Source: Eledone cirrhosa (taxonomy: Eukaryota). Taken from it: DNA of 64,000 bases. The translations under genes and the position numbers were made by a program. Under the pieces are notes generated by a model. It was not told the DNA's origin. It did no database searches and saw only the letters and a list, made by a program, of their open reading frames with translations. The stretch spans positions 167,214,001-167,278,000 of the forward strand of contig OZ024743.1 in the NCBI GenBank assembly GCA_964016885.1, written 5' to 3'. Shown here in pieces: positions 3,041-63,607 of this stretch (position 1 is its first letter; every line of letters begins with the position of its first letter).

Positions 3041-3049
<9 letters not shown>

Positions 3050-3584
3050 TAAACAAATAATGAATAAAACAATGAAACAGTTCCTTATATTAAACAAAAA
3101 AAGTTCATTATTTAACGATCGTTTCTAGGATATATATGTGTTAGAATTGGCATGCATATTCAACAGATCTATGTACAAAATTATACAAAATTATACAAAC
3201 TATCAAGATTAAATATACATACCAACACATATATACGCCGTCTTCAGAAGACGGCGTATATATGTGTTGGTATGTATATTTAATCTTGATAGTTTGTATA
3301 ATTTTGTATAATTTTGTACATAGATCTGTTGAATATGCATGCCAATTCTAACACATATATATCCTAGAAACGATCGTTAAATAATGAACTTTTTTTGTTT
3401 AATATAGGGAACTGTCTCATTGTTTATTCATTATTTGTTTAATATTTTATCTTGACTCTGTATACCGTTTATCTTTCACCGAAAGTGATTTTTCATTACA
3501 TCTCTTCTTTCCATGATATCCGGAATACATTGAGTTCTTCATACGGATTGGACACTACCGTAAACTCTTGGTAGATTTATCTAC
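3041..3584. mobile_element. PLE-type hairpin insertion: about 205-bp palindrome centred at 3246 plus 3' tail
   Basis: 3041-3245 is the near-perfect reverse complement of 3247-3450; CTGAAGA on minus at the centre; GAAACGATCGTT; tail 3451-3584. Confidence 0.8.
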
Positions 3585-6762: not shown

Positions 6763-6857
<95 letters not shown>

Positions 6858-6962
6858 TATAGATATATATATAGATATATATATAGATATATAGATATAT
6901 ATATAGATAGATATATATTAAGAGAGTAAAACAAAGAATCCTTTAATACATCAAAAGTTTTT

Positions 6963-7007
6963 ATTAGCCGACAATGTTTCGTCCTATTAAGGACTCATCA
7001 GGGCAAT
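6963..7007 (-). ncRNA. minimal type I hammerhead ribozyme (inverted copy)
   Basis: reverse complement of 7536-7580. Confidence 0.85.
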
Positions 7008-7535
7008 CAAACAACAAGAAGTAATTTCGGCAGATACAAGCCAGAAACTCTGAAGAATATGGGGTTTACATATACTAATGTCTTACAAGGATATACGATA
7101 ATAAAAATGAGGATAAAACTATAATAACTAATTATGTAGATGACATTAAGAACCATATTACAAATATGGTCCAAAGTCACCAACTTAAATCTAAACAGTG
7201 CAATATATACATGTATATATGTATATACATGTATATATTGCACCTTTTGATTTTTGATTTGGAATTTCAGTGTTGGTATAGATATATTATTATAAGAATG
7301 TATTATACTGTGTTATATATAATTCCTGTTCTATATAACCAAATTTGTTTAGATTTAAGTTGGTGACTTTGGACCATATTTGTAATATGGTTCTTAATGT
7401 CATCTACATCCTTAGTTATTATAGTTTTATCCTCATTTTTATTATCGTATATCCTTGTAAGACATTAGTATATGTAAACCCCATATTCTTCAGAGTTTCT
7501 GGCTTGTATCTGCCGAAATTACTTCTTGTTGTTTG

Positions 7536-7580
7536 ATTGCCCTGATGAGTCCTTAATAGGACGAAACATTGTCGGCTAAT
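7536..7580 (+). ncRNA. minimal type I hammerhead ribozyme
   Basis: gcc-CTGATGA-gtcct taat aggac-GAAA-cattg-TC-ggc; predicted cut after 7573 (GUC). Confidence 0.9.
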
Positions 7581-7713
7581 AAAAACTTTTGATGTATTAA
7601 AGGATTCTTTGTTTTACTCTCTTAATATATATATATCTATATATATATCTATATATCTATATATATATCTATATATATATCTATATATATATATATATAT
7701 ATATCTATCTATC

Positions 7714-8590: not shown

Positions 8591-8708
8591 TAATTGTTTC
8601 TACTTTAGGCACAAGGCCAGCAATTACCCAGTGCATTACTGGTACTTTATTTTATCGACCCCGTAAGGATGAAAGGCAAAGTCAACCTCGGCGGGATTTG
8701 AACTCAGA
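8591..8708 (-). mobile_element. Octopus-type tRNA-derived SINE fragment
   Basis: B-box GAGTTCAAATCC on minus; core ttatcgaccccg.aaggatgaaaggcaaagtc; other copies at 46297 and 49158. Confidence 0.75.
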
Positions 8709-8725
8709 TCTATATATCTATATAT

Positions 8726-9155
8726 ATAATATAAGATCAAAAGATGGTTAAAGGAGTTCCATATATTTTATTATGCGCATTTCAAAAACAAACATCATCA
8801 AACAATAATATTTGTGTTTTCATCAGATAAAACAGGAGAACATCATATGAAGGCTAAAAAACACTTGTTGATAGTGCAGTTTTAAATCAACATATCAACA
8901 TATGTTGATTTAAAACTGCACTATCAACAAGTGTTTTTTAGCCTTCATATCATGTTCTCCTGTTTTATCTGATGAAAACACAAATATTATTGTTTGATGA
9001 TGTTTGTTTTTGAAATGCGCATAATAAAATATATGGAACTCCTTTAACCATCTTTTGATCTTATATTATGCATACTCCAGTCCCACAAACTGTAGAGTGC
9101 TTCTTATCCGATATCTGCATTGCTTTATTGTACTACAATAAAACTCACCTCCTAC
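8726..9155. mobile_element. PLE-type hairpin insertion: 170-bp arms plus tail
   Basis: 8726-8895 versus 8900-9069; tail 9070-9155. Confidence 0.8.
8963..9029 (+). ncRNA. type I hammerhead ribozyme (mirror copy on minus in left arm)
   Basis: ttttat-CTGATGA-14-bp stem II-GAAA-tgcgca-TA-ataaaa; palindromic stem III; predicted cut after 9023. Confidence 0.8.
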
Positions 9156-9772: not shown

Positions 9773-10057
9773 TTATTGTTCATTTAGCTTGGGTTTGAAT
9801 TTATCAATAAAATTCTTTTCTTTGATTTTTCTCTTGATTTCATTTGGGCTGTGTAATTTGTAGAATGGGAATATTATAAATATTCCCTGACCACATGTTG
9901 CCAGGTGGCCGCTTAGGGGTATCTGACGGACATTTGGGTCTCTGATTTGTTGACGGTGTACCCGTGCACGTTCCGATAGTGCATTTCCAGTTTGACCGAC
10001 ATATAGTTCTTCACAATTCGGGCATTTAATGCAGTAAATTAGATTTCTGCTTTTGCA
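9773..10057 (-). pseudogene. 5'-truncated PLE GIY-YIG domain (Neptune-like); not in the ORF track
   Basis: manual translation [54 protein letters not shown]. Confidence 0.85.
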
Positions 10058-10069
10058 GTGATCCAGCCC

Positions 10070-10170
<101 letters not shown>

Positions 10171-10191
10171 ATCTATATATATATATATCTA

Positions 10192-10258
<67 letters not shown>

Positions 10259-10417
10259 ATATATATATATATATCTATATATATATATATATATATATCT
10301 ATCTATATATATATATATATCTATCTATATATATATATATCTATCTATCTATATATATATATATATATCTATATATATATATATATATATCTATCTATAT
10401 ATCTATATATATATATA

Positions 10418-12336
10418 TCAGGGGCTGGATCACTGCTATGCACAGCAGCCGCATCTGCTCTAGGGTCAAGGTGAACGGCTACCTCTCGGAGCCGTTCAAA
10501 ATCGCGCGGTCCATCCGACAAGGGTGCCCTCTCTCCTCCCTTCTGTATGTGTTGACTCTCGAGCCACTACTGCGGAAGTTGGAGTTGTTGCAGGGCATCC
10601 CTTTGGAACCGGGATTGCGGAAAGCGGTGTCGGCCTACGCCGATGACGTGACAGTAATGGTGTCGACGGCCTCCGAAATCGAGGCGGTCGGCACCTTACT
10701 GGAGGAGTACGAAAAGTTCACAGGGGCTAAGCTGAACCGGGACAAGTCGATCGGTTTGCAACTCGGCAGGTGGAGGGGCAGACCGATGCCCTCCGATGGC
10801 GTCGTCGGACGCTGGACGGAGGGCCCGGTGAAGTTGCTCGGGGTCTGGTTCGGACTGGACCTCCAGGTGGAGAAAAACTGGGCGGAGGTTACGAACAGGG
10901 TGTTTGCACTGACCCAGAAGTGGGCCAGTTGCAAACTATCCCTGAAAGGTCGGGCGGAGGTGGCGAACACCTACATAGCGTCCGTCATCTACTACCGCCT
11001 GACCGTAGTGCCCTGCCCAAGGGAAACCCTCACCAAGATGGAGCGCGCGCTCTTCCAATTCCTTTGGAAGAGGCGGGCTCCTATGGTGAGGAGATCCATC
11101 TGCTGTCAACACCCTTCGAAAGGAGGGCTGGGGATGCCATGGCTAATGATGCGTAAACACGCATTAAGGCTACGGCACCTCTACGTATTCCTCACCGGAC
11201 AACCTGTGTGGGCCTCGTTCGTGAGACGAACCTTTCCCAGACTCGTCTCACTCACCGAGCTGCAATCCTGGGTCAAGCAAAGACCGAGAAAACTGGGCGC
11301 CTGGCACACTGAGTGTGCCCAGGCGCTCACCGCCCTCTGGCAGGCGGATCCGGTTATCAGTGGAGACTCCACCGCAACATTCTATAGAGGGCTGGTACGC
11401 AGCAGGTGCGACGACGCCCTCGGAGAAGCCCTAGACATGGAGGAGGATGAACTGGCCAGCCTGTTCGGTAGGACATTCAGCCCGGGACCTATGGAGAACT
11501 TCCAGAAGTCCCTGGCCTGGCAGTGCTACCGAGGAACTTTACCCGTTCGAGAAAGGCTCTACAGACACGGGCGCCCGGGTAGGGACCCCGCCAAAAAGAT
11601 CTGTCCCAGATGCGTGTGCGACGAGGAAACCGTTGCACACGCATTGGTACACTGCTCGGGCGTAGCCGATCTGTGGGGCTATGTCGAACAACTGCTGTCA
11701 AGGGTGGGACCGATCCGGTTGACCACCGAGTCTATTGTAATGATCAAGCCACCTCCCCCCTTCAAAGATGAAGCAGAGGCGGTGTTTCTGTGCGTAATAG
11801 CCATGGCGAAAGAGGTTGTATGGTGGACGCGTCTGAAAGGACTGAGGTCAGGCACCTTTCTCTCTGGCCAACAACTGGTCCGTTTCTTCCGATATCATTT
11901 CGGAAGAAGGATCAGGATGGAGAGAGAGGTGCTGCACCCCAGTCGTTTTTATGAAAGGTGGGTGAAAGTGGCGAGAATGGGCCGTGTGAATGGGCCTTCT
12001 CTTTACATGAGCCTGTAGGTGGAAAAGAGGAAGGAACGAGGGAGCACCCCCTCTCTGTGCTCCTGAGGAAAAGGGTTGCACACTTTTTTCGGGGGTGTGT
12101 GCGACCCCCCAAGGCGCCTCCTCTCTATTGAGGATTTTGTTATAAATTTTATTTTTTGTTATATTTTATAACAAAATCCTCTATTGAGGATTTTGTTATA
12201 ATTCTATTTTTTGTTATATTTTATTTTATTTTTATATTTTGTTATTGCCTCCTCCCTAGTGAGGACGCCTTGTTTTGTAAACTCCCCCCATTGTACTTGT
12301 CCCACTTTTGATGCCCTTGTGGCAAATAAAAGAAAC
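10418..12336 (+). mobile_element. 5'-truncated Tx1-type LINE (open RT C-half and zinc-finger region, ORF 10438-12018)
   Basis: RQGCPLS, YADD, CPRC..ET..H...C; near-identical to 17023-18885. Confidence 0.95.
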
Positions 12337-40612: not shown

Positions 40613-40682
<70 letters not shown>

Positions 40683-40696
40683 GATATATATATATC

Positions 40697-40737
<41 letters not shown>

Positions 40738-40859
40738 AATATAGACATAGAATATTCGAAAATATTCTGTATGTTTATAATAAACATTTTGAAGACCTAA
40801 TCGCTATAGAATAGAATACGTCACGTATTACAATTAGATTCTCGATAAAAGCAAGGGAA

Positions 40860-40902
40860 GTAATCTACGCGTTTCATTCTTATTAGAAATCTTCAGGACT
40901 AC
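40860..40902 (-). ncRNA. type I hammerhead ribozyme (first of 12 minus-strand copies, period 310)
   Basis: reverse complement of 44733-44775. Confidence 0.85.
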
Positions 40903-43900
40903 ATATCCAGTGCTTTTATCGAGAATGACACAGCTAGAGACTTATAGAATACTTAGCTGTGTACATGAACTGGTTTGAAAGAGCGGTTGCCGGTCCGGCA
41001 GAAATTAGAAATTGGAATAAATGCTCTGAAATAGCGATATATATGTGAATATAGACATAGAATATTCGAAAATATTCTGTATGTTTATAATAAACATTTT
41101 GAAGACCTAATCGCTATAGAATAGAATACGTCACGTATTACAATTAGATTCTCGATAAAAGCAAGGGAAGTAATCTACGCGTTTCATTCTTATTAGAAAT
41201 CTTCAGGACTACATATCCAGTGCTTTTATCGAGAATGACACAGCTAGAGACTTATAGAATACTTAGCTGTGTACATGAACTGGTTTGAAAGAGCGGTTGC
41301 CGGTCCGGCAGAAATTAGAAATTGGAATAAATGCTCTGAAATAGCGATATATATGTGAATATAGACATAGAATATTCGAAAATATTCTGTATGTTTATAA
41401 TAAACATTTTGAAGACCTAATCGCTATAGAATAGAATACGTCACGTATTACAATTAGATTCTCGATAAAAGCAAGGGAAGTAATCTACGCGTTTCATTCT
41501 TATTAGAAATCTTCAGGACTACATATCCAGTGCTTTTATCGAGAATGACACAGCTAGAGACTTATAGAATACTTAGCTGTGTACATGAACTGGTTTGAAA
41601 GAGCGGTTGCCGGTCCGGCAGAAATTAGAAATTGGAATAAATGCTCTGAAATAGCGATATATATGTGAATATAGACATAGAATATTCGAAAATATTCTGT
41701 ATGTTTATAATAAACATTTTGAAGACCTAATCGCTATAGAATAGAATACGTCACGTATTACAATTAGATTCTCGATAAAAGCAAGGGAAGTAATCTACGC
41801 GTTTCATTCTTATTAGAAATCTTCAGGACTACATATCCAGTGCTTTTATCGAGAATGACACAGCTAGAGACTTATAGAATACTTAGCTGTGTACATGAAC
41901 TGGTTTGAAAGAGCGGTTGCCGGTCCGGCAGAAATTAGAAATTGGAATAAATGCTCTGAAATAGCGATATATATGTGAATATAGACATAGAATATTCGAA
42001 AATATTCTGTATGTTTATAATAAACATTTTGAAGACCTAATCGCTATAGAATAGAATACGTCACGTATTACAATTAGATTCTCGATAAAAGCAAGGGAAG
42101 TAATCTACGCGTTTCATTCTTATTAGAAATCTTCAGGACTACATATCCAGTGCTTTTATCGAGAATGACACAGCTAGAGACTTATAGAATACTTAGCTGT
42201 GTACATGAACTGGTTTGAAAGAGCGGTTGCCGGTCCGGCAGAAATTAGAAATTGGAATAAATGCTCTGAAATAGCGATATATATGTGAATATAGACATAG
42301 AATATTCGAAAATATTCTGTATGTTTATAATAAACATTTTGAAGACCTAATCGCTATAGAATAGAATACGTCACGTATTACAATTAGATTCTCGATAAAA
42401 GCAAGGGAAGTAATCTACGCGTTTCATTCTTATTAGAAATCTTCAGGACTACATATCCAGTGCTTTTATCGAGAATGACACAGCTAGAGACTTATAGAAT
42501 ACTTAGCTGTGTACATGAACTGGTTTGAAAGAGCGGTTGCCGGTCCGGCAGAAATTAGAAATTGGAATAAATGCTCTGAAATAGCGATATATATGTGAAT
42601 ATAGACATAGAATATTCGAAAATATTCTGTATGTTTATAATAAACATTTTGAAGACCTAATCGCTATAGAATAGAATACGTCACGTATTACAATTAGATT
42701 CTCGATAAAAGCAAGGGAAGTAATCTACGCGTTTCATTCTTATTAGAAATCTTCAGGACTACATATCCAGTGCTTTTATCGAGAATGACACAGCTAGAGA
42801 CTTATAGAATACTTAGCTGTGTACATGAACTGGTTTGAAAGAGCGGTTGCCGGTCCGGCAGAAATTAGAAATTGGAATAAATGCTCTGAAATAGCGATAT
42901 ATATGTGAATATAGACATAGAATATTCGAAAATATTCTGTATGTTTATAATAAACATTTTGAAGACCTAATCGCTATAGAATAGAATACGTCACGTATTA
43001 CAATTAGATTCTCGATAAAAGCAAGGGAAGTAATCTACGCGTTTCATTCTTATTAGAAATCTTCAGGACTACATATCCAGTGCTTTTATCGAGAATGACA
43101 CAGCTAGAGACTTATAGAATACTTAGCTGTGTACATGAACTGGTTTGAAAGAGCGGTTGCCGGTCCGGCAGAAATTAGAAATTGGAATAAATGCTCTGAA
43201 ATAGCGATATATATGTGAATATAGACATAGAATATTCGAAAATATTCTGTATGTTTATAATAAACATTTTGAAGACCTAATCGCTATAGAATAGAATACG
43301 TCACGTATTACAATTAGATTCTCGATAAAAGCAAGGGAAGTAATCTACGCGTTTCATTCTTATTAGAAATCTTCAGGACTACATATCCAGTGCTTTTATC
43401 GAGAATGACACAGCTAGAGACTTATAGAATACTTAGCTGTGTACATGAACTGGTTTGAAAGAGCGGTTGCCGGTCCGGCAGAAATTAGAAATTGGAATAA
43501 ATGCTCTGAAATAGCGATATATATGTGAATATAGACATAGAATATTCGAAAATATTCTGTATGTTTATAATAAACATTTTGAAGACCTAATCGCTATAGA
43601 ATAGAATACGTCACGTATTACAATTAGATTCTCGATAAAAGCAAGGGAAGTAATCTACGCGTTTCATTCTTATTAGAAATCTTCAGGACTACATATCCAG
43701 TGCTTTTATCGAGAATGACACAGCTAGAGACTTATAGAATACTTAGCTGTGTACATGAACTGGTTTGAAAGAGCGGTTGCCGGTCCGGCAGAAATTAGAA
43801 ATTGGAATAAATGCTCTGAAATAGCGATATATATGTGAATATAGACATAGAATATTCGAAAATATTCTGTATGTTTATAATAAACATTTTGAAGACCTAA

Positions 43901-44732
43901 TCGCTATAGAATAGAATACGTCACGTATTACAATTAGATTCTCGATAAAAGCAAGGGAAGTAATCTACGCGTTTCATTCTTATTAGAAATCTTCAGGACT
44001 ACATATCCAGTGCTTTTATCGAGAATGACACAGCTAGAGACTTATAGAATACTTAGCTGTGTACATGAACTGGTTTGAAAGAGCGGTTGCCGGTCCGGCA
44101 GAAATTAGAAATTGGAATAAATGCTCTGAAATAGCGATATATATGTGAATATAGACATAGAATATTCGAAAATATTCTGTATGTTTATAATAAACATTTT
44201 GAAGACCTAATCGCTATAGAATAGAATACGTCACGTATTACAATTAGATTCTCGATAAAAGCAAGGGAAGTAATCTACGCGTTTCATTCTTATTAGAAAT
44301 CTTCAGGACTACATATCCAGTGCTTTTATCGAGAATGACACAGCTAGAGACTTATAGAATACTTAGCTGTGTACATGAACTGGTTTGAAAGAGCGGTTGC
44401 CGGTCCGGCAGAAATTAGAAATTGGAATAAATGCTCTGAAATAGCGATATATATGTGAATATAGACATAGAATATTCGAAAATATTCTGTATGTTTATAA
44501 TAAACATATTCTATTCTATAGCGATTAGGTCTTCAAAATGTTTATTATAAACATACAGAATATTTTCGAATATTCTATGTCTATATTCACATATATATCG
44601 CTATTTCAGAGCATTTATTCCAATTTCTAATTTCTGCCGGACCGGCAACCGCTCTTTCAAACCAGTTCATGTACACAGCTAAGTATTCTATAAGTCTCTA
44701 GCTGTGTCATTCTCGATAAAAGCACTGGATAT

Positions 44733-44775
44733 GTAGTCCTGAAGATTTCTAATAAGAATGAAACGCGTAGATTAC
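44733..44775 (+). ncRNA. type I hammerhead ribozyme (also at 45043 and 45353)
   Basis: gtagtc-CTGAAGA-t ttct aata agaa t-GAAA-cgcg-TA-gattac; predicted cut after 44769. Confidence 0.85.
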
Positions 44776-45553
44776 TTCCCTTGCTTTTATCGAGAATCTA
44801 ATTGTAATACGTGACGTATTCTATTCTATAGCGATTAGGTCTTCAAAATGTTTATTATAAACATACAGAATATTTTCGAATATTCTATGTCTATATTCAC
44901 ATATATATCGCTATTTCAGAGCATTTATTCCAATTTCTAATTTCTGCCGGACCGGCAACCGCTCTTTCAAACCAGTTCATGTACACAGCTAAGTATTCTA
45001 TAAGTCTCTAGCTGTGTCATTCTCGATAAAAGCACTGGATATGTAGTCCTGAAGATTTCTAATAAGAATGAAACGCGTAGATTACTTCCCTTGCTTTTAT
45101 CGAGAATCTAATTGTAATACGTGACGTATTCTATTCTATAGCGATTAGGTCTTCAAAATGTTTATTATAAACATACAGAATATTTTCGAATATTCTATGT
45201 CTATATTCACATATATATCGCTATTTCAGAGCATTTATTCCAATTTCTAATTTCTGCCGGACCGGCAACCGCTCTTTCAAACCAGTTCATGTACACAGCT
45301 AAGTATTCTATAAGTCTCTAGCTGTGTCATTCTCGATAAAAGCACTGGATATGTAGTCCTGAAGATTTCTAATAAGAATGAAACGCGTAGATTACTTCCC
45401 TTGCTTTTATCGAGAATCTAATTGTAATACGTGACGTATTCTATTCTATAGCGATTAGGTCTTCAAAATGTTTATTATAAACATACAGAATATTTTCGAA
45501 TATTCTATGTCTATATTCACATATATATCGCTATTTCAGAGCATTTATTCCAA

Positions 45554-45597
<44 letters not shown>

Positions 45598-45630
45598 CAT
45601 ATATATCATATATATATAAAATATATATAT

Positions 45631-46029: not shown

Positions 46030-46227
46030 AATCAGGATGTTGTTGGAGATATGTGTGTCTGGAATGATGCCGGTGTACTTAGTGTCACGAATGACCAAAA
46101 GAAGGAGGCCTGGAAATGTCATTATGAGAGACTGATGAATGTAGAGAACAAATGGGACAGAGAGGAATTACCCCCCAGTACACCCGACAGAGGGACCAGC
46201 TATTGAGATTGACAAATACAGGGTCCA
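46030..46227 (+). mobile_element. internal RTE fragment
   Basis: similar to about 51288-51483. Confidence 0.8.
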
Positions 46228-46296
46228 CCATCCACCACCACCACCACCACCACCACCAGCGATCGGGCCTTAAGAAAACAACAACTATAATAATAA

Positions 46297-46420
46297 TAAT
46301 TTTTCTGCTGTTGGCACGGGGCAGCGATTGTCCCAGCGCATTGTTCGTGCTTTGTTTTGTCGACTTCGTGGGGATGAAGGACGGGGTTGACCCCTCGTGA
46401 TTTGAGCTCGGAGCGTGGAG
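46297..46420 (-). mobile_element. SINE copy, A-to-G hypermutated on the plus strand
   Basis: aligns with 8591-8708. Confidence 0.75.
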
Positions 46421-46436
46421 GGTCATTTCTCTATGC

Positions 46437-49129
46437 CAGCGCTGCCGAAAGTTTTTTTCAAAACGTACAGAATCTGACCAAAACGCACATAATTTTACTA
46501 AATCCCCCAATTACAATCAAAAACACTCTTTTTATACATATTTTTCAAGTTAACAACATTTATTGACAATTTAAACATAAGGGCATCAAAAAGAAACGTC
46601 ATCTTCCTGAGCAGATTCTCTGTTGTACCAATTTATTTCAAATAATGCTTTGCAAAGATGTTCATCGGACTCCCACGCCGTGCAGTCGGCCTGTCGTAAC
46701 AAATATTCGACCTAACAAGAGCGTTAAGAGTGGAAGTTTTCAAACAATTTAGATTCTTTGTTTTAATAGAGTGGAGAACAGAGAAAATTCTTTCAGCCGC
46801 TGCGGAGGAGTGGGTAAAGAAAGAAGACTAAGCATAAGAAATGACAGCAGAGGGTAAAGGTTCTCATCGCCACATTTCTCTTGTGAGACAGCAAACCAAA
46901 ATTTTTCTGGATCGTTGTGCGGGATGAAGGAAGAACCTTGAATCGTCAGGTGGCGCCATTCCTGATTTATCTCTTCGTAATCTTTCTCATCACAAAGACT
47001 TGGAAATCGCATAACAAGTGGAATTATTGACCTCGGCCTTCCCTCTATCACGTTGGTTGGGTCTAACGCCTCAAGTAGTTCCAAATTGTTCTGCATATTG
47101 CAAGACAAAAACCGCATTAGCATTTGGTTTGAAAGACAAACAAAGAATCGTAGTATATTCTGTCGGAAGGTCAGCAATTCATCAAGGGCAATGGTGGTAG
47201 AATTGTCGTGTAAAATGCTCTCAGCTACACCACCAAAGTAGATACGATCTAATGGTTGGTGTGCTGTTGAATCGTTGACATTCAAATCAGGTTTAATGAA
47301 ATTGCTCAAAATTCCCTTCATTCCAGCGTCGATTGCTCTTTTGAGTTTAGGCATCCAATAGCTTTCGGCCTGGAATTCCAGATTAAGTTTGTTGACGTCG
47401 TTTAAAATAAAAGATAGAAATGCAAAATACATCTTTGTAAGAGGATTCTTCATTTCAGTGAGAATTCTTCGAGCCGTAGACGGACACCCATCCTCTAATG
47501 TTGCTTGGGTGAAATATGCCAGCAATGCTCTAAAATGCGCTCCACAACTTGCTTGAGAGACAGCCACCTCGTGCAGCTTGCATGCAGGATTTTGTGAGGA
47601 TCAATTGAAGCTATTTTCTACAGACCTTTGTATTCATTGAACCGCTTAGGACTGTGACTAAAGTATGCATAAATACTTCTTGTCAATTCTTCCACGGAAT
47701 TTGGTAATTCATTGCACGCTTTTGATGAACTTAAGTGTAATGAATGACAAACACAGGCTTGCACAAGTAGATCTGGTCTCGTCTGCTTCAACAAATGCTG
47801 GACGCCTCCTTTGCTGCCCATCATAACACTCGCATTATCACAGGCGAAACCTATCAAATTTTCCAAAGGAATAGCGTATTCGTTGAAAAACGGTAGAAGA
47901 CAGTTGCAAATACCCACAGCACTGCAATCATTTATTTCTATAAACGTTAGAAAATCGTCGATAGTCTTTTGAATTTCAACGTCGTAATATCTGGATACAA
48001 GGACGAGTTGTTTAAGTGTTGAAACATCAGTTGTTTCATCGAAGATGAGGGAGAATTTTGTCGAATGAAGCTTCTTTAATAAAGTGTTGAAGCCATAGGG
48101 GCCAATGACGTTTGAAAAGATGGATGTGCCTTTTGTTCTGGCACACTTCACATCCTGTGTGATTTTAGAATCAGGACAGGCGTTTACAACAAGGCCAGGC
48201 AATTGGTCCAAAATAGAGATGGGTAGATTATGCTCAGCAACAAATGCAGAGTACTTTAATTCAGCAGATACTACTTTCCTGGAGTGTGAAGAAAACAAAG
48301 AGGCTTGGATAAAAGTTGTCAATTTCATTGCTTTGTTCGCTTCTTTTGCATTCTTGCGGTGCTTTTCTGTCTGCTCATGTCGTAAAATTTGACTCAAACT
48401 GCCGGCAATTTCACATTTGCAAAATATGCATTTGCCTTTAGTTGTATCGTTCTTGCCCACTTCCAACCAAGAAGAAAAGTTTTCATCGTACAACAATTTG
48501 GACGGAAACTTCCTTTCATACGATGCCCATCTAGCCTTCTTCTTATCTGCTGCTTTACGTTCGTTATCTGAAGAATGTTCTCGTTTCACAGTTCTATCAC
48601 TCATATCTGGTTCAAGTGAGTTCTATAAGATTTATTTGAATTAATTAAACTATTAAAAACATCACATACCGTTTACACTGTAGGTTATAAGAATTCTGCT
48701 TTTGTGTTCAGACTGATACGGCGTGGTTGTATAAATTAGCTCTGTAAAATTAAATCTAATCTATCAAACTTTTGAAAAAAAATTCATCCACCTTTTACAC
48801 CAGTTTGTGAGAAAAATTCCTTCGTTATGACAGATATGGCGTGGTAAACTGGACATATACTTCCCCCAAATTTACAGCCGCCCTTGACCTCATAAGTCAA
48901 CGCGCGCTTGCACGCACAAGTCTCGTCTGCATTCTCATGTGCTTTTATTTTTGTGAAGCTCCGAAACGCGCATATGTGAAAATGCACTCAATCAATGCGT
49001 CAAAACAAGAATTTTATAAACCGATGGCAAGATCACTAAAACGTACAGCAAATTCGTCCGAACGTACAGCACATTAAATTTTTGAGCAAAACGTAGTTTT
49101 GTACGAACGTACAGTCATCGGCAGCGCTG
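46437..49129 (-). mobile_element. hAT DNA transposon with 12-bp TIR and 8-bp TSD
   Basis: TIR cagcgctgccga/tcggcagcgctg; TSD ctctatgc at 46429-46436 and 49130-49137. Confidence 0.95.
46749..48604 (-). pseudogene. hAT transposase (frameshifted)
   Basis: C..C..H...H finger, DETTD, DNASVM, C..HSL, dimerisation-like C-terminus. Confidence 0.9.
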
Positions 49130-49157
49130 CTCTATGCTGTAAAACAATTATTATAAT

Positions 49158-49265
49158 AATTGTTTCTACTTTTGGCACAAGGCCAGCAATTACTCAGTAC
49201 ATTACTGGTACTTTATTTTATCGACGTCGTAAGGATGAAAGGCAAAGTTAATCTCGGCGGGATTT
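49158..49265 (-). mobile_element. Octopus-type SINE fragment
   Basis: similar to 8591-8708. Confidence 0.75.
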
Positions 49266-49823
49266 ATAATAATACTGAACAGTAACACACGGCTTCAATT
49301 ATACTAACTCTTTCGAAAGTCAACAGTTGACATGATCTTGTATCAGTAATGACGGTAATATATGTATATATGTGTGTGTGTGTGTGTGTAAGTGAGTGGC
49401 GTGTGTGTGTTTGTATGCATGAGTATTGGTGTGTGTGAGTGGCATGTGTGTGTCGTTACGTATGTGTGTCAATAGGTGATTTTTTTTTTTTGCGCGCGGG
49501 GACATAGAAATAATCGGGTTGGATACTCGATCGCGCAGTTAAACCACTGGGAGTGAAGGACCCCTAGCTTTTGTCAGGGCATTCTTCTAGGAAAAGCATC
49601 TCAGGAAACTGGGTTAACTCCGACATAAAACCTGCGGCTCAGTAGTTACCGATGATGTTGATCTTTTCTTCTTTTCGGGTTATAGTTACTGTCGTTCAGA
49701 GAGTGGGATTGGCTCAGTGCACAGTCTTTCCTCACTTTAAAAAATTCTTCACGCACAGGTATTGCATGATTGTATTAATTAATAATTATTAATAGTGTTA
49801 TTATTATTGTTATTATTATTATG

Positions 49824-52800
49824 ACCACGCTGTAAAATGGACGGGTAAGACATCCTCTCTAGTGCTAGTGGCACGAATAAAAGCACCCAGTCCATGCTGT
49901 AAAGTGGTGCTGGTGTTAGGAAGGGCATCCAACCAGTATATATATACTACTGCCAAACCTATGAGCACAACAAATGAGAATTGCAACAACTGCGTCAACA
50001 GCAATAACACTAACCATGTTAGGGCTGCGCACGGTAGTGGAGTTGCTGGTGAGGCCATGTGCGAGAACCCCCCGACCGTCTTCAAGCAATCACACTACAG
50101 GAAAAGGAATAAGAATATGAAGACATCGCATCTCAGAGTTGCAACACTTAATGTTGATCTGGTGAAATAGTGGAGATGCTGGAGAGAAGGTATGTGGATG
50201 TGTGCTGCATGCAAGAGGTGAGATGGAGAGGTGCCTCTGCAAGACTAATCGCAGGTAAACATCGTAGTTATAAGCTTTTCTGGGTGGGTAAGGATGATGG
50301 GTTAGGGGGAGTAGGCATTTTCCTGGCTGAGAGATGGATCGATAAGACAATAGAGGTAGAATAATTAAGCTTAGATTAGTTGTAGGCAAGAGACTACTGA
50401 CCATCATCTCTGCCTATGCTCCCCAGGCGGGCCTAGGTAAAGAAGAGAAAGACTGCTTTTACGAGCAACTTTTACAAACAGCCGCAATGACAGAGGACGG
50501 AGACATCATTATGCTAGCAGGGTATTTCAATGGACATGTTGGACAGCTCCAGGATGGTTACACTGGGGTACATGGTGGGCACGGTTACGGCTCAAGAAAT
50601 GAAGGAGTGAGACTTTTTGAATTTTGTGATGCATGTGCACTAACAATTTGCAACACTAACTTCTAGAAACCTGCCAACCACCTATTAACCTACAAATCAG
50701 GCGAGCACATAAGCCAGATTGATTTTTTATTAGTTAGGCAGCGGGACAGGCAGATGGTGTCAAATACCAAGGTATACCCTGGGAAAGGATGTACCCCACA
50801 GCATAGGTTAGTCATTAGTGATATCTCAGTAAGCAAGAAACAGAATGAGACATACAGGAAGGTGTGGAGAAGAAGGGTCTGGAAGCTAAAAGACCATTCA
50901 CTAAAATACAAATTTAGGAAAGCCCTTCAAGATGTATATGACAAAAAAGAAGACGATTTAGAGTCGTATTACATAGATGATAACTGGAATTTCTTACTTG
51001 ACAACTTGCTGCAGACTACTGATGAAACTTGTGACTGGAGCAGAGCTCCAACCAGACAGAGAGTGACCTGGTGGTGGATCAGCACGGTAGATAGGGCCAT
51101 TAGAGACAAAAGACTAGCATGGAAAGGGGTGGGAGTAGAGAAGGATATACAGCCACTAAGAGGGAAGCTAGACGTCAGGTATACTTAGCACGCAGGGAGG
51201 CTGAGAGTAGGAGGTTTGCCAATGTTCTGCGACGGAAAGATCTGAGACGTGCGGTGTTCCACATTTCAAGGCAGTGTGTCAATGCAAATCAGGATGTTGT
51301 TGGAGATAAATGTGTTCGGAATAATGCCGGTGTACTTAGTGTCACGAATGATCAGAAAAAGGAAGCCTGGAAATGTCATTATGAGAGACTGATGAATGTA
51401 GAGAACGAATGGGAGAGAGAGAAATTACCCTCAGTAGATCCGACAGAGGGACCAGCTATTGAGATTTATGAATATAGGGTCCAAGAAGCGATTAAGGAAA
51501 TGAAAAATGGTAAGGTCGCTGGACCATCAGGGATAGTTGCTGATATGCATCAGGCATCAGGAGAAGTAGGCACTAAACGCACCATCAATCAGGCTATATA
51601 TGGCGGTGTGATACCCAAAGACTGGTGCAACAGTATTCTCATAAATTGCTACAAAGGTAAAGGGAATGCTCTGGAGAGGAGCAATTATGAAAGTGGCAGA
51701 AAGGATATTAGCGCAACTAATTAGAGAAAGGGTCAAACTAGATGAGATGCAGTTTGGTTTTGTGCCTGGGAAAAGTACAACAGATTCCCTCTTCTTGGTG
51801 GTCCCTAGGGAAACTAGGTGTTGAGGAATGGCTTGTGAGGACAGTGTACATCAGGGTTCGGTCCTCAGCCCGCTCTTGTTCAAGCCATAACAGAGGAGTT
51901 TAAGACTGGCTGTCCATGGGAACTTCTCTATGCCGACGATCTGGTTTTTATAGCAGAATCAGTAGAGGAGCTAGAGAATAAATTCTGGTTATGGAAACAG
52001 CAGTTGGAATCAAGAGAACTGAGAGTGAACCTAGCTAAGACGAAAGTGTTGATGAGTAGAAAAGAGGACAAAACTCTGATTCCGTCAGGGAAATGGCCAT
52101 GTTCGATATGTAGAACAGGAACTGGCATAAATTCCATAAAATGTACGCAATGCAGATCTTGGGTACACAAGAGGTGTAGTGGGGTAGCAGGCAAACTAAC
52201 AGGTAGGGAGAAATAAGTATGCAGTAGATGTACAGGGAAATTTGACAGTAGAAGTCGCATTGATAGACACATTTTTCAAATGCAGGAGGGTGTTATAGAA
52301 GTGGTGGATAGCTTCTGGTACCTAGGAGAACAGATTAGCATGGGAGGAGGGTGTTCCGAGGCCATAGTATCTAGAATAAGGACGGGTTGGAAGAAGTTTA
52401 GGGAGCTGCTTCCTCTGTTGACAAAGAAGGGTTTCTTCCTGCGTATGAAAGGACGGTTATATGATGCCTGTGTGAGGAGCGCGATGCTGCATGGTAGTGA
52501 GACATGGGCCACAACTGCAGAGGATATGCGACGGCTGGAGAGAAATGAGGCAAACATGCTCTGTTGGATGTGCAATGTCAATGTGCGTGAACGACCCAGC
52601 ATGGGTTGAGAGAGAAACTGTGTCTGAGAGGGATAGAATGTAGTGTGCGAGAGACGATACTGAGGTGGTATGGACATGTGATGCGCATGGAGGATGACCG
52701 ATGGGTGAAGAAGTGCCAAGAAATGCCAGTTGAAGGAAGACGTAGTAGAGGAAGATCACGAAAAACATGGGCGGAGGTGGTGAGAGCAGACCTCAGATCA

Positions 52801-52920
52801 CTGAAACTCGCGATGGATATGACGAAGGACTGTGACAAGTGGAGAGATGCTGTGTGGAATAGGATCTGTCCCACCCTTGCAAGCAGGGAAAAGCGGACGT
52901 AAAATGATGATGATGATGAT
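49824..52920 (+). mobile_element. near full-length decayed RTE LINE with (GAT)n tail
   Basis: RVATLNV, CMQEVRW, YAPQ, QFGF, YADD, WPCSICRTG, LRWYGHVMR. Confidence 0.9.
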
Positions 52921-53523: not shown

Positions 53524-53853
53524 AACCAAAGATTAATATGGTTCATTGATTACTCAATGAATATAGTTTTACAATAGATTTAAAAGCACTCTACAGTTAA
53601 ATTTTCTGGAGTTATTATTATTCAGAATAATAATAAATGAAGACATTCACATAATCAAAATATTTGTTTTATTATATATATTTCGAAGGTGCTGTGGTGT
53701 TTTTTCTGTACGTCCTCGTCAGATAAAATACATGAATATATTTTATCTGACGAGGACGTACTGAAAAAACACCCCAGTACCTTCGAAATATATATAATAA
53801 AACATATATTTTGATTATGTGAATGTCTTCATTTATTATTATTCTGAATAGTA
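53524..53853 (-). mobile_element. PLE-type tail plus hairpin with an HHR in each arm
   Basis: arms about 53616-53733 and 53736-53853. Confidence 0.8.
53741..53802 (+). ncRNA. type I hammerhead ribozyme (mirror at 53667-53728, minus)
   Basis: ttttat-CTGACGA-ggacgtactg/cagtaccttc-GAAA-tatata-TA-ataaaa. Confidence 0.8.
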
Positions 53854-61798: not shown

Positions 61799-63607
61799 TC
61801 GTTTCTTAATTTGTTTAGCAAGATTCTTTATCTGAAAACGTGTGTTGAAACCGATATTGTTATACTTTGGGAGGGTCATGTTGCCAATAAGAAACACACG
61901 CACCAGTTGCTTTCATTTCAATTTATTATAATACATTTATAAATTTAGGAATTTATAAATTTCCGGTTGGTTGGTTCCACAACCAGATAGTTGTTTATAT
62001 ATTGTCAAAGTTCTTTCGTCACACATTCTGTGACCTCTTCAGTGACTGGGGATTCTTTTCTTTGTTTTTTGTGCCTCTCCTTTGTTCTGTTCTACGCCAT
62101 CTTGTTTTTGTGTGTGTGTTGTGTGCTTAGTTTGCGCATGTGTTACATCCGGGTGTCTGTGTGTGTTTATATTCGTTTATTTATTTGTTTATTTACATGT
62201 TACTGGTTGGTTGTTTGTTCTATGTGCGTGTGTGTTTTCATTTTGTCCTTAATTGTAAGTTGTGATGTTGCTGTTCCACTCATGTTTTCTATTTAATTTT
62301 GGTTGTAATTCATTTATGTTTATTGCCTCTGTGATTTGTTTAAACATTGCATCTTTTCTGTGTGTAGATTCTATTTTTATTTCTATGTTCTCTAATTTAC
62401 CCTTATGTTCTATTTTAGCATGTTAGTAGAGTACAGATGATTCTTTACTATCTTGAAGGTCTCGCCAGTGTTCATTTATCCGTTCCCCTATACTACGAGC
62501 TGTCTCACCTATGTACACTATATTTTTATCTCTACATTGTCCTTCAGTACATCTTATGCTATATACTACATTTCTAGTTTTACAGTTAATATGGGGGCTT
62601 AATTTACAGATTATACATTTCTTATCTATACAGGGAGGTCTTTGAAAAGGGTATGTCTTGCTAATAAGTGTTTTTATGGAGGTTCCTGGTCTTTCTACTA
62701 TCTTAATATTGAGTTTATGTTTATCTAGGGCCCTTCTAAATTTGTAAGCTAATTCACCTCTAGGGGTTGTATTGATGAACATTACACTCTGGTATTTATT
62801 GCTATCATACCATGAGTTTATTCTATTAGCCTTATTCCTAGTTCTTTCTATTCTATTCCAAAATTTGCTCCTATACAAGGGGCAGGTCCCATTTGTGTCA
62901 TTATTTACCATTTTTTCCCATTTGATTCTGGCTCCTCTATACACTCTGTTTTTATCTCTCTGATTGTAACCAGAGAACTGCATACGGTGGATGAAGTGTT
63001 GTATGTGTCTCTCTAGTTCTTCGGGGTTGCACATGCGGGACACGTTTCTCATCACCCGTACCTATCTTCAATCAGTATGTTGATTTGGGGATGGTCTGAA
63101 ACAGCTGAGTTTCGGCGAATCAGATATTTGGAAGTCATGGGTTTGGCATAATGGGAATGGAGGATTTGTTTTTTGTTATTAATGGTATCTAACCAGAGCT
63201 CTGTGTCTAATACAGGTAATCGATGGTTGGGGTGTTTGCTTGGGTAGTCTATAGTAACTCTAATACTCTGGTGGATGGAGTTAGCTATTTGCTGGATGCT
63301 TTCCATTGTGTTTTTCTCTAATTCCTGACTGTTCTCTAGTGGGGGTGTTTTAACTACGATATTTATATCATCAACGTAGCGAGGGTACATTATCAGGGTT
63401 AAGGGGTCTTCTAATTGTTCTTTAAGTTTAAGTTAAAGAACAATTTAACTTAAAGAACAATTAGAAGACCCCTTAACCCTGATAATGTACTCCCGCTACG
63501 TTGATGATATAAACATCGTAGTTAAAACACCCCCCACTAGAGAACAATCAGGAATTAGAGAAAAACACAATGGAAAGCATCCAGCAAATAGCTAACTCCA
63601 TCCACCA
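61799..63607 (-). mobile_element. 5'-truncated Nematis-like PLE with inverted duplication at the 5' junction
   Basis: RYVDD..YIGET; 63447-63607 is the reverse complement of 63269-63428. Confidence 0.9.
62004..62046 (-). ncRNA. minimal type I hammerhead ribozyme
   Basis: gtca-CTGAAGA-g-gtcaca/tgtgac-GAAA-gaac-TT-tgac. Confidence 0.7.

Follow-up and report, generated by a model that had tools for sequence, protein, structure and literature searches.

The cluster of A-to-G changes in an antisense SINE beginning at position 46298 of the window (the whole 64,000-nt stretch of the Eledone cirrhosa contig OZ024743.1 analysed here) very probably arose through ADAR acting on the RNA of an RTE-type LINE that carries the SINE in its 5' UTR, with the edits being fixed by reverse transcription; this attribution is drawn from sequence comparison. 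The changes belong to a family of elements, and fossil RNA editing at the level of that family explains the data better than either a single hypermutated copy or a defence acting on cDNA. The features of the window that are needed for the argument are the following.

8594..8708, minus strand: free unedited SINE, the reference of the original prediction
46030..46227, plus strand: fragment from inside an RTE ORF (90% identity with 51287-51483), fused to the truncated UTR
46225-52920, plus strand: RTE-type LINE hosting the focal piece, its sense strand fixed by its ORF
46225..46297, plus strand: what remains of the LINE 5' UTR ahead of the SINE piece, (CAC)n and then the (AAT)n landing site
46298..46436, minus strand: the focal SINE piece, short-type, 5'-truncated and antisense to the LINE, with 21 A-to-G changes on the plus (LINE RNA) strand
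46437..49129, minus strand: hAT-like DNA transposon of 2.7 kb interrupting the UTR, with 12-bp terminal inverted repeats (46437, 49118)
49160..49265, minus strand: second SINE in the same UTR, a later insertion, unedited (0 A-to-G), used as an internal control
49264..49960, plus strand: remaining LINE 5' UTR, common to a second RTE family with a different ORF
49961..52920, plus strand: RTE-type ORF in decay, with endonuclease and reverse transcriptase parts and a PHD-like insert, followed by an (ATG)n tail

The host element has the features of the RTE clade, namely a single ORF with an apurinic-type endonuclease and a reverse transcriptase and a short tandem-repeat tail, which is the (ATG)n stretch near 52905, and from its motifs and tail we take it to be an RTE element. 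The RVT_1 and PHD matches of the window copy are weak; the related locus L161 matches both Exo_endo_phos and RVT_1. In other LINE copies the head of the UTR reaches several hundred bases further 5' than 46225, and a motif in this head has 331 exact matches in the genome. The junction of the RTE fragment at 46030-46227 with the truncated 5' end lies at a short shared stretch, which resembles a template switch. The final bases of the SINE piece resume at 49130-49146, beyond the DNA transposon, which is flanked by an 8-bp target duplication at 46429 and 49130 and contains long open transposase-like frames at 46749-48622, with a weak match to DUF4371 below the curated cut-off; on account of the 8-bp duplication it is presumably a hAT element. 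The SINE family has tRNA-type A and B boxes, and its orientation was set by the two boxes as they are visible in full-length free copies. Octopus SINE families with a central domain described in the accessible literature include the OR1 CORE-SINE and MetaSINE (for MetaSINEs, PMC4824008). The repeats of the genome also suggest an octopus-like host.

When the focal piece was compared with the majority sequence of free SINEs over 149 nt, 21 of the 42 aligned A's were found to be G, and the other changes amounted to 2 G-to-A, 2 T-to-C and 5 C-to-T. The same G-rich differences appear in alignments with both of the copies named in the original prediction, and the region covered by the copy at 8591 holds 18 of the 21, in agreement with the 17-18 counted there. 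Only 12 A-to-G changes in total (2.6% per A) were present in 11 free short-type SINEs, and the focal cluster is therefore far beyond chance. The neighbour rule put forward for this copy also held, since between SINE positions 9 and 122 all nine T-preceded A's had changed to G and all six G-preceded A's were unchanged. The copy at 49158-49265, which had been cited in support, is indeed unedited; however, this SINE inserted later into the LINE UTR that holds the focal piece, from which it is separated by the 2.7-kb transposon.

The hypermutation had been thought to be private to one copy, and this did not hold. Twenty of the 21 focal G's were found in 25-119 of 120-125 other copies, the remaining one (site 86) in 1/125; this count uses 126 of 141 UTR-embedded copies, 15 having been dropped as too short or too diverged, and one free SINE, one duplicate, one copy without an anchor and six repeated or interrupted loci had been removed before the set of 141 was formed. 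The genome search (3.0 Gb) gave 972 candidates, of which 40 were scored; the scored copies other than the focal one were 82-88% identical, and the 29 other loci retrieved share most of the G's. When loci were sampled by means of an anchor outside the SINE, 29 out of 30 had 11-16 A-to-G changes and the 30th was interrupted. Relative to its own sublineage, the window copy shows 2 A-to-G, 2 T-to-C, 3 G-to-A and 5 C-to-T changes, which is ordinary decay. The proposed check for a multi-copy form with shared sites thus came out positive, and the sharing of the G's rules out a single-copy event.

The other proposed check, that the G-rich form might be ancestral, came out negative. For a 20-base core, the A form had 222,766 exact matches and the form with two or three G's had 205. 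Among 30 loci retrieved with a pattern neutral to A and G, 25 were free A-rich SINEs and five were G-rich, all five inside the LINE UTR. Because the A form is vastly commoner and the G-rich loci are all LINE-embedded, A is the ancestral state and G is derived, and an ancestral G-rich form was rejected. The derived G's lie on the LINE RNA strand, as set by the ORF. A search for the empty-site ancestor of the RTE UTR with one exact pattern returned 0 matches, which does not imply absence.

The changes are strongly one-way. In a set of 102 copies, which wrongly took in one free SINE (L159), the sites changed in more than 60% of copies were 17/43 A's (A-to-G) versus 2/39 T's (T-to-C; P=2e-4), and such a one-way cluster on the transcribed strand is a feature of the ADAR footprint; a few fixed C-to-T and T-to-C changes are also present in the SINE piece. 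In these copies, 0/6 G-preceded A sites had changed versus 22/32 other A's (P=0.003), and the neighbour bias therefore persists against the true majority sequence. Among rare alleles of the UTR flank no such excess was seen (46/6626 versus 61/6909), and in the ORF of 10 copies a slight excess was found (A-to-G 0.74% versus T-to-C 0.46%). SINEs that inserted later into the same UTR served as further controls: 36 antisense insertions had 38 A-to-G changes in 1196 A's versus 27 T-to-C in 1229 T's, 10 of the 38 sitting in one edited copy (L106), and 15 sense insertions had 11/516 versus 12/509. Since these later SINEs are nearly all unchanged, the changes appear to need passage through RNA. Rare alleles within the SINE piece of the 102 copies showed no overall A-to-G excess (25/1517 versus 40/3104, P=0.35), so that fresh editing of individual copies must be uncommon; five rare A-to-G alleles occur in the SINE piece of L037. 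Common alleles in the UTR flank comprised 6 A-to-G and 0 T-to-C, and the effect is thus not strictly bounded to the SINE piece.

The sequence context was also analyzed in seven hand-listed events taken together. By 5' neighbour, the edited fraction was 34/47 for T, 36/65 for A, 17/38 for C and 2/26 for G; the pooled P value of 9e-7 is generous because the same SINE positions recur among the events, and the T enrichment is partly built in because the search pattern required G at two T-preceded sites. The depletion of 5' G with U and A preferred, which is expected of an ADAR footprint, is present both here and in the 102 copies, and the order T>A>C>G is the one reported for ADARs in the available text of two studies (PMC3113232, PMC5625713). 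By 3' neighbour, the edited fractions were 0.64 for C, 0.56 for G, 0.46 for T and 0.32 for A. A downstream-A enrichment of edited sites, as the available text of PMC5625713 reports for invertebrates, was not seen, A being the least edited 3' context by a measure that differs from the published one.

Similar clusters recur in other elements and at other sites. The edited later insertion is a second antisense SINE in L106 with 9-10 A-to-G and no T-to-C changes, partly at sites absent from the family. A pattern requiring G at two sites also led to an unrelated LINE family with 158 exact matches; this family has an RVT_1 match, and a CCHC knuckle, a PD..D motif and TAA flanks were seen by eye, motifs from which we take it to be of the R4/Dong type. 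Of 30 loci of this family, five have an empty site, and at 13 there is one or the other of two edited SINE pieces that are shared among loci; the seven scored have 5-11 A-to-G and 0-1 T-to-C changes. Most single insertions are unedited.

In a sister element that forms a hairpin, the changes are confined to the duplex. This non-autonomous element, found in five copies, has RTE UTR on one side and an RTE-like 3' end on the other, with a short antisense SINE and then a full sense SINE in between. Counts for four of the copies gave 6-10 A-to-G changes in the antisense arm and 8-16 in the sense arm, both on the element strand, and 0-1 changes of the opposite kind. In the sense arm, 16/24 A's had changed where paired versus 1/17 where unpaired (P=9e-5), and the five copies differ among themselves at 33 A/G and 10 C/T columns. 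For the focal piece, its own fold was no better than those of shuffled sequences (z -0.7), and no pairing partner strand was found for it.

Editing is not limited to antisense SINEs. A sense-strand pattern gave eight matches, namely three from the hairpin family, one that is not a SINE, and the loci L277, L280, L281 and L283; the raw count is uninformative, as a reversed control matched 794 times. L280, L281 and L283 are lone SINEs in sense orientation that are edited on the SINE sense strand, and at L277:1279-1882 three SINEs in mixed orientation have 19, 12 and 11 A-to-G changes, all on one strand. The pattern that first suggested editing of antisense SINEs only had one match, which is not an edited copy, and the proposal that only antisense SINEs are edited, and hence that the partner was Pol III SINE RNA supplied in trans, is weakened by the lone sense-edited SINEs. 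The surroundings of L277 are microsatellite-rich DNA in which no LINE was seen, and this locus is possibly a retro-copied host RNA. Two loci, L235:1001-1178 and L243:1206-1382, have tandem antisense SINEs of which the second is edited only at 74-146 and the first only at 9-66, as if one partner strand had paired across both. Landing hot spots for SINEs were observed in the UTR near 49150 and 49790 (L002, L008, L010, L014, L032, L093 and others), with antisense insertions in (AAT)n and sense insertions in (TTA)n; with hot spots of opposite polarity, inverted SINE pairs would therefore form repeatedly in LINE transcripts.

It is unlikely that the shared G's came about by ordinary subfamily evolution, in which a diverged SINE was captured once and received them through errors of reverse transcription, GC-biased conversion or selection on a UTR promoter. 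Shared sites would be expected of any subfamily-diagnostic change, and the few fixed C-to-T and T-to-C changes, the slight A-to-G excess in the ORF and the lack of an overall per-copy excess are all compatible with such a history. However, it leaves unexplained why the excess is one-way, why G-preceded A's were spared, why the pattern recurs in unrelated elements at other sets of sites and why it is confined to the paired arm, and GC-biased conversion would yield T-to-C as often as A-to-G.

A much less probable source is the one offered in the original prediction, in which retrotransposition is countered by an APOBEC-like defence, with an adenosine deaminase acting on first-strand cDNA or on an RNA:DNA hybrid. 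ADAR acts on RNA:DNA hybrids in vitro, and the changed strand of the focal piece, taken alone, is the SINE cDNA strand. However, the cDNA of a LINE copying this piece is the other strand and would give T-to-C. A change on the cDNA strand, the feature expected of an APOBEC-like process, was not found; instead the element RNA strand is changed in both SINE orientations, as the hairpin family (both arms on one element-sense strand, and almost only where paired) and the sense-oriented SINEs of L277, L280, L281 and L283 demonstrate. The near absence of changes in later SINE insertions of the same UTR also argues against it, and restriction is not evident, as the edited elements kept multiplying. 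The least probable explanation is an artefact of assembly or sequencing; homopolymer-rich repeats may be misassembled, but the G's were found again at more than 100 loci, which are spread over many contigs and show lineage structure. Parts of the edited piece are also matched, at 1-2 differences, by contigs from other public runs; these runs are perhaps not independent, the contigs cannot themselves show editing, and part of the stretch is also covered by free SINEs.

Editing of LINE RNA could have proceeded as follows. The SINE landed backwards in the UTR of the LINE, within a run of (AAT)n. In the LINE transcript, this piece would have paired with complementary SINE RNA, either in trans or from a nearby sense copy since lost, and ADAR would have deaminated about 40-50% of its A's, after which the LINE reverse transcriptase would have copied the inosine as G. 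We infer ADAR as the enzyme from the sequence footprint, and adenosine-deaminase (PF02137) genes are present in the genome. The G-rich form then multiplied and is now found on hundreds of copies with two ORF families, and more A-to-G sites seem to have been gained in separate sublineages and in single copies, for which the evidence is partial. The edited masters thus probably spread while gaining more edits, and the window copy would have received almost all of its edits by descent, with normal decay afterwards. The earlier suggestion of a retro-copied, hyper-edited antisense transcript is therefore supported in its essentials; however, the transcript would have been that of a LINE, and the edits are those of master elements and not of the focal copy.

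A stepwise gain of A-to-G sites is partly shown by the lineages. The 13 copies on the window-type ORF form a nested series with 5 to 11 G's over 14 variable sites, and the 37 copies on the other ORF have a different set of G's; 74 copies carry no ORF assignment. The order of the gains is not established because the tree of the UTR flank is poorly resolved, sites 52, 114 and 132 look reverted or converted, and chimeric pieces occur. The SINE pieces of L081, L082 and L192 are part edited and part unedited, which suggests conversion by free SINEs. The other RTE ORF behind the same UTR is nearly intact in L161. The occurrence of one 5' UTR on two RTE families with different ORFs (46225-49960 versus L161 and its relatives) suggests capture or swapping of the leader.

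The nearest known system is that of hyperedited avian retroviruses (Rous-associated virus, avian leukosis virus), which, as far as the available text of a review describes them (PMC12925331), have ADAR-type A-to-G clusters that lie in an inverted repeat, affect about 50% of its A's and passed into DNA by reverse transcription. Those cases are single virus variants; here, in contrast, the elements are inherited non-LTR retrotransposons whose edited masters would have given rise to families with hundreds of members. APOBEC-edited LTR retrotransposons of vertebrates, as the accessible text of two reports presents them (PMC4866542, PMC2873906), likewise carry fixed deaminase clusters in their genomic copies, and these follow a neighbour motif, but their changes are G-to-A through C-to-U on cDNA and damage ORFs. 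In the present elements the changes are A-to-G on the RNA strand, lie in UTR cargo and, in the hairpin family, are duplex-confined, and restriction is not visible. Hyper-editing of SINE and repeat dsRNA by ADAR, including in cephalopods, shares the repeat-derived duplex substrate, the depletion of upstream G and the heavy editing in octopus, but the available text of PMC5625713 and PMC9068888 describes it at the RNA level only, and the invertebrate downstream-A preference is absent here. An RTE LINE expressed in octopus brain, RTE-2_OV, resembles the host element in its clade, long 5' UTR and microsatellite tail; an edited SINE in its UTR is not mentioned in the available part of the report (PMC9115989), and eight of its supplementary files contained no motif match, though its sequence may lie in four others. 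No description of germline-fixed, amplified ADAR edits in non-LTR families was found in the literature outside subscription journals, as far as its accessible text goes.

If this reading is correct, RNA edits would have passed directly into heritable DNA in the group of animals with the heaviest editing. In contrast to APOBEC scars, the edits did not halt the elements: hundreds of copies have edited leaders, and among them is a young subfamily whose ORF is nearly intact. Such scars would indicate that ADAR meets LINE RNA in the germline and mark its double-stranded parts, and they may be used as barcodes for ordering subfamilies and UTR swaps. A broader proposal, which we consider somewhat likelier to be right than wrong, is that ADAR is here a germline mutator of retrotransposons, with edits in SINE cargo ratcheting up over rounds in active masters, driving the sequence evolution of whole families of LINEs and leaving a fossil record, open to dating, of dsRNA in the germline and of the specificity of ADAR. 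Caution is also advisable for A-to-G "editing sites" called in cephalopod repeats, some of which may be genomic.

Several repeat structures were also observed. At G000:C1:296788920-296825871, nine matches to the UTR head motif, several of them about 3.3 kb apart, form a tandem array of the leader. In the window, near-identical 310-bp units lie in an array at 40625-45630 that matches itself in inverted orientation, and long palindromes of 90-98% identity are located at 3041-3450, 6831-7712, 8726-9069, 10055-10436, 53616-53853 and 63269-63607.
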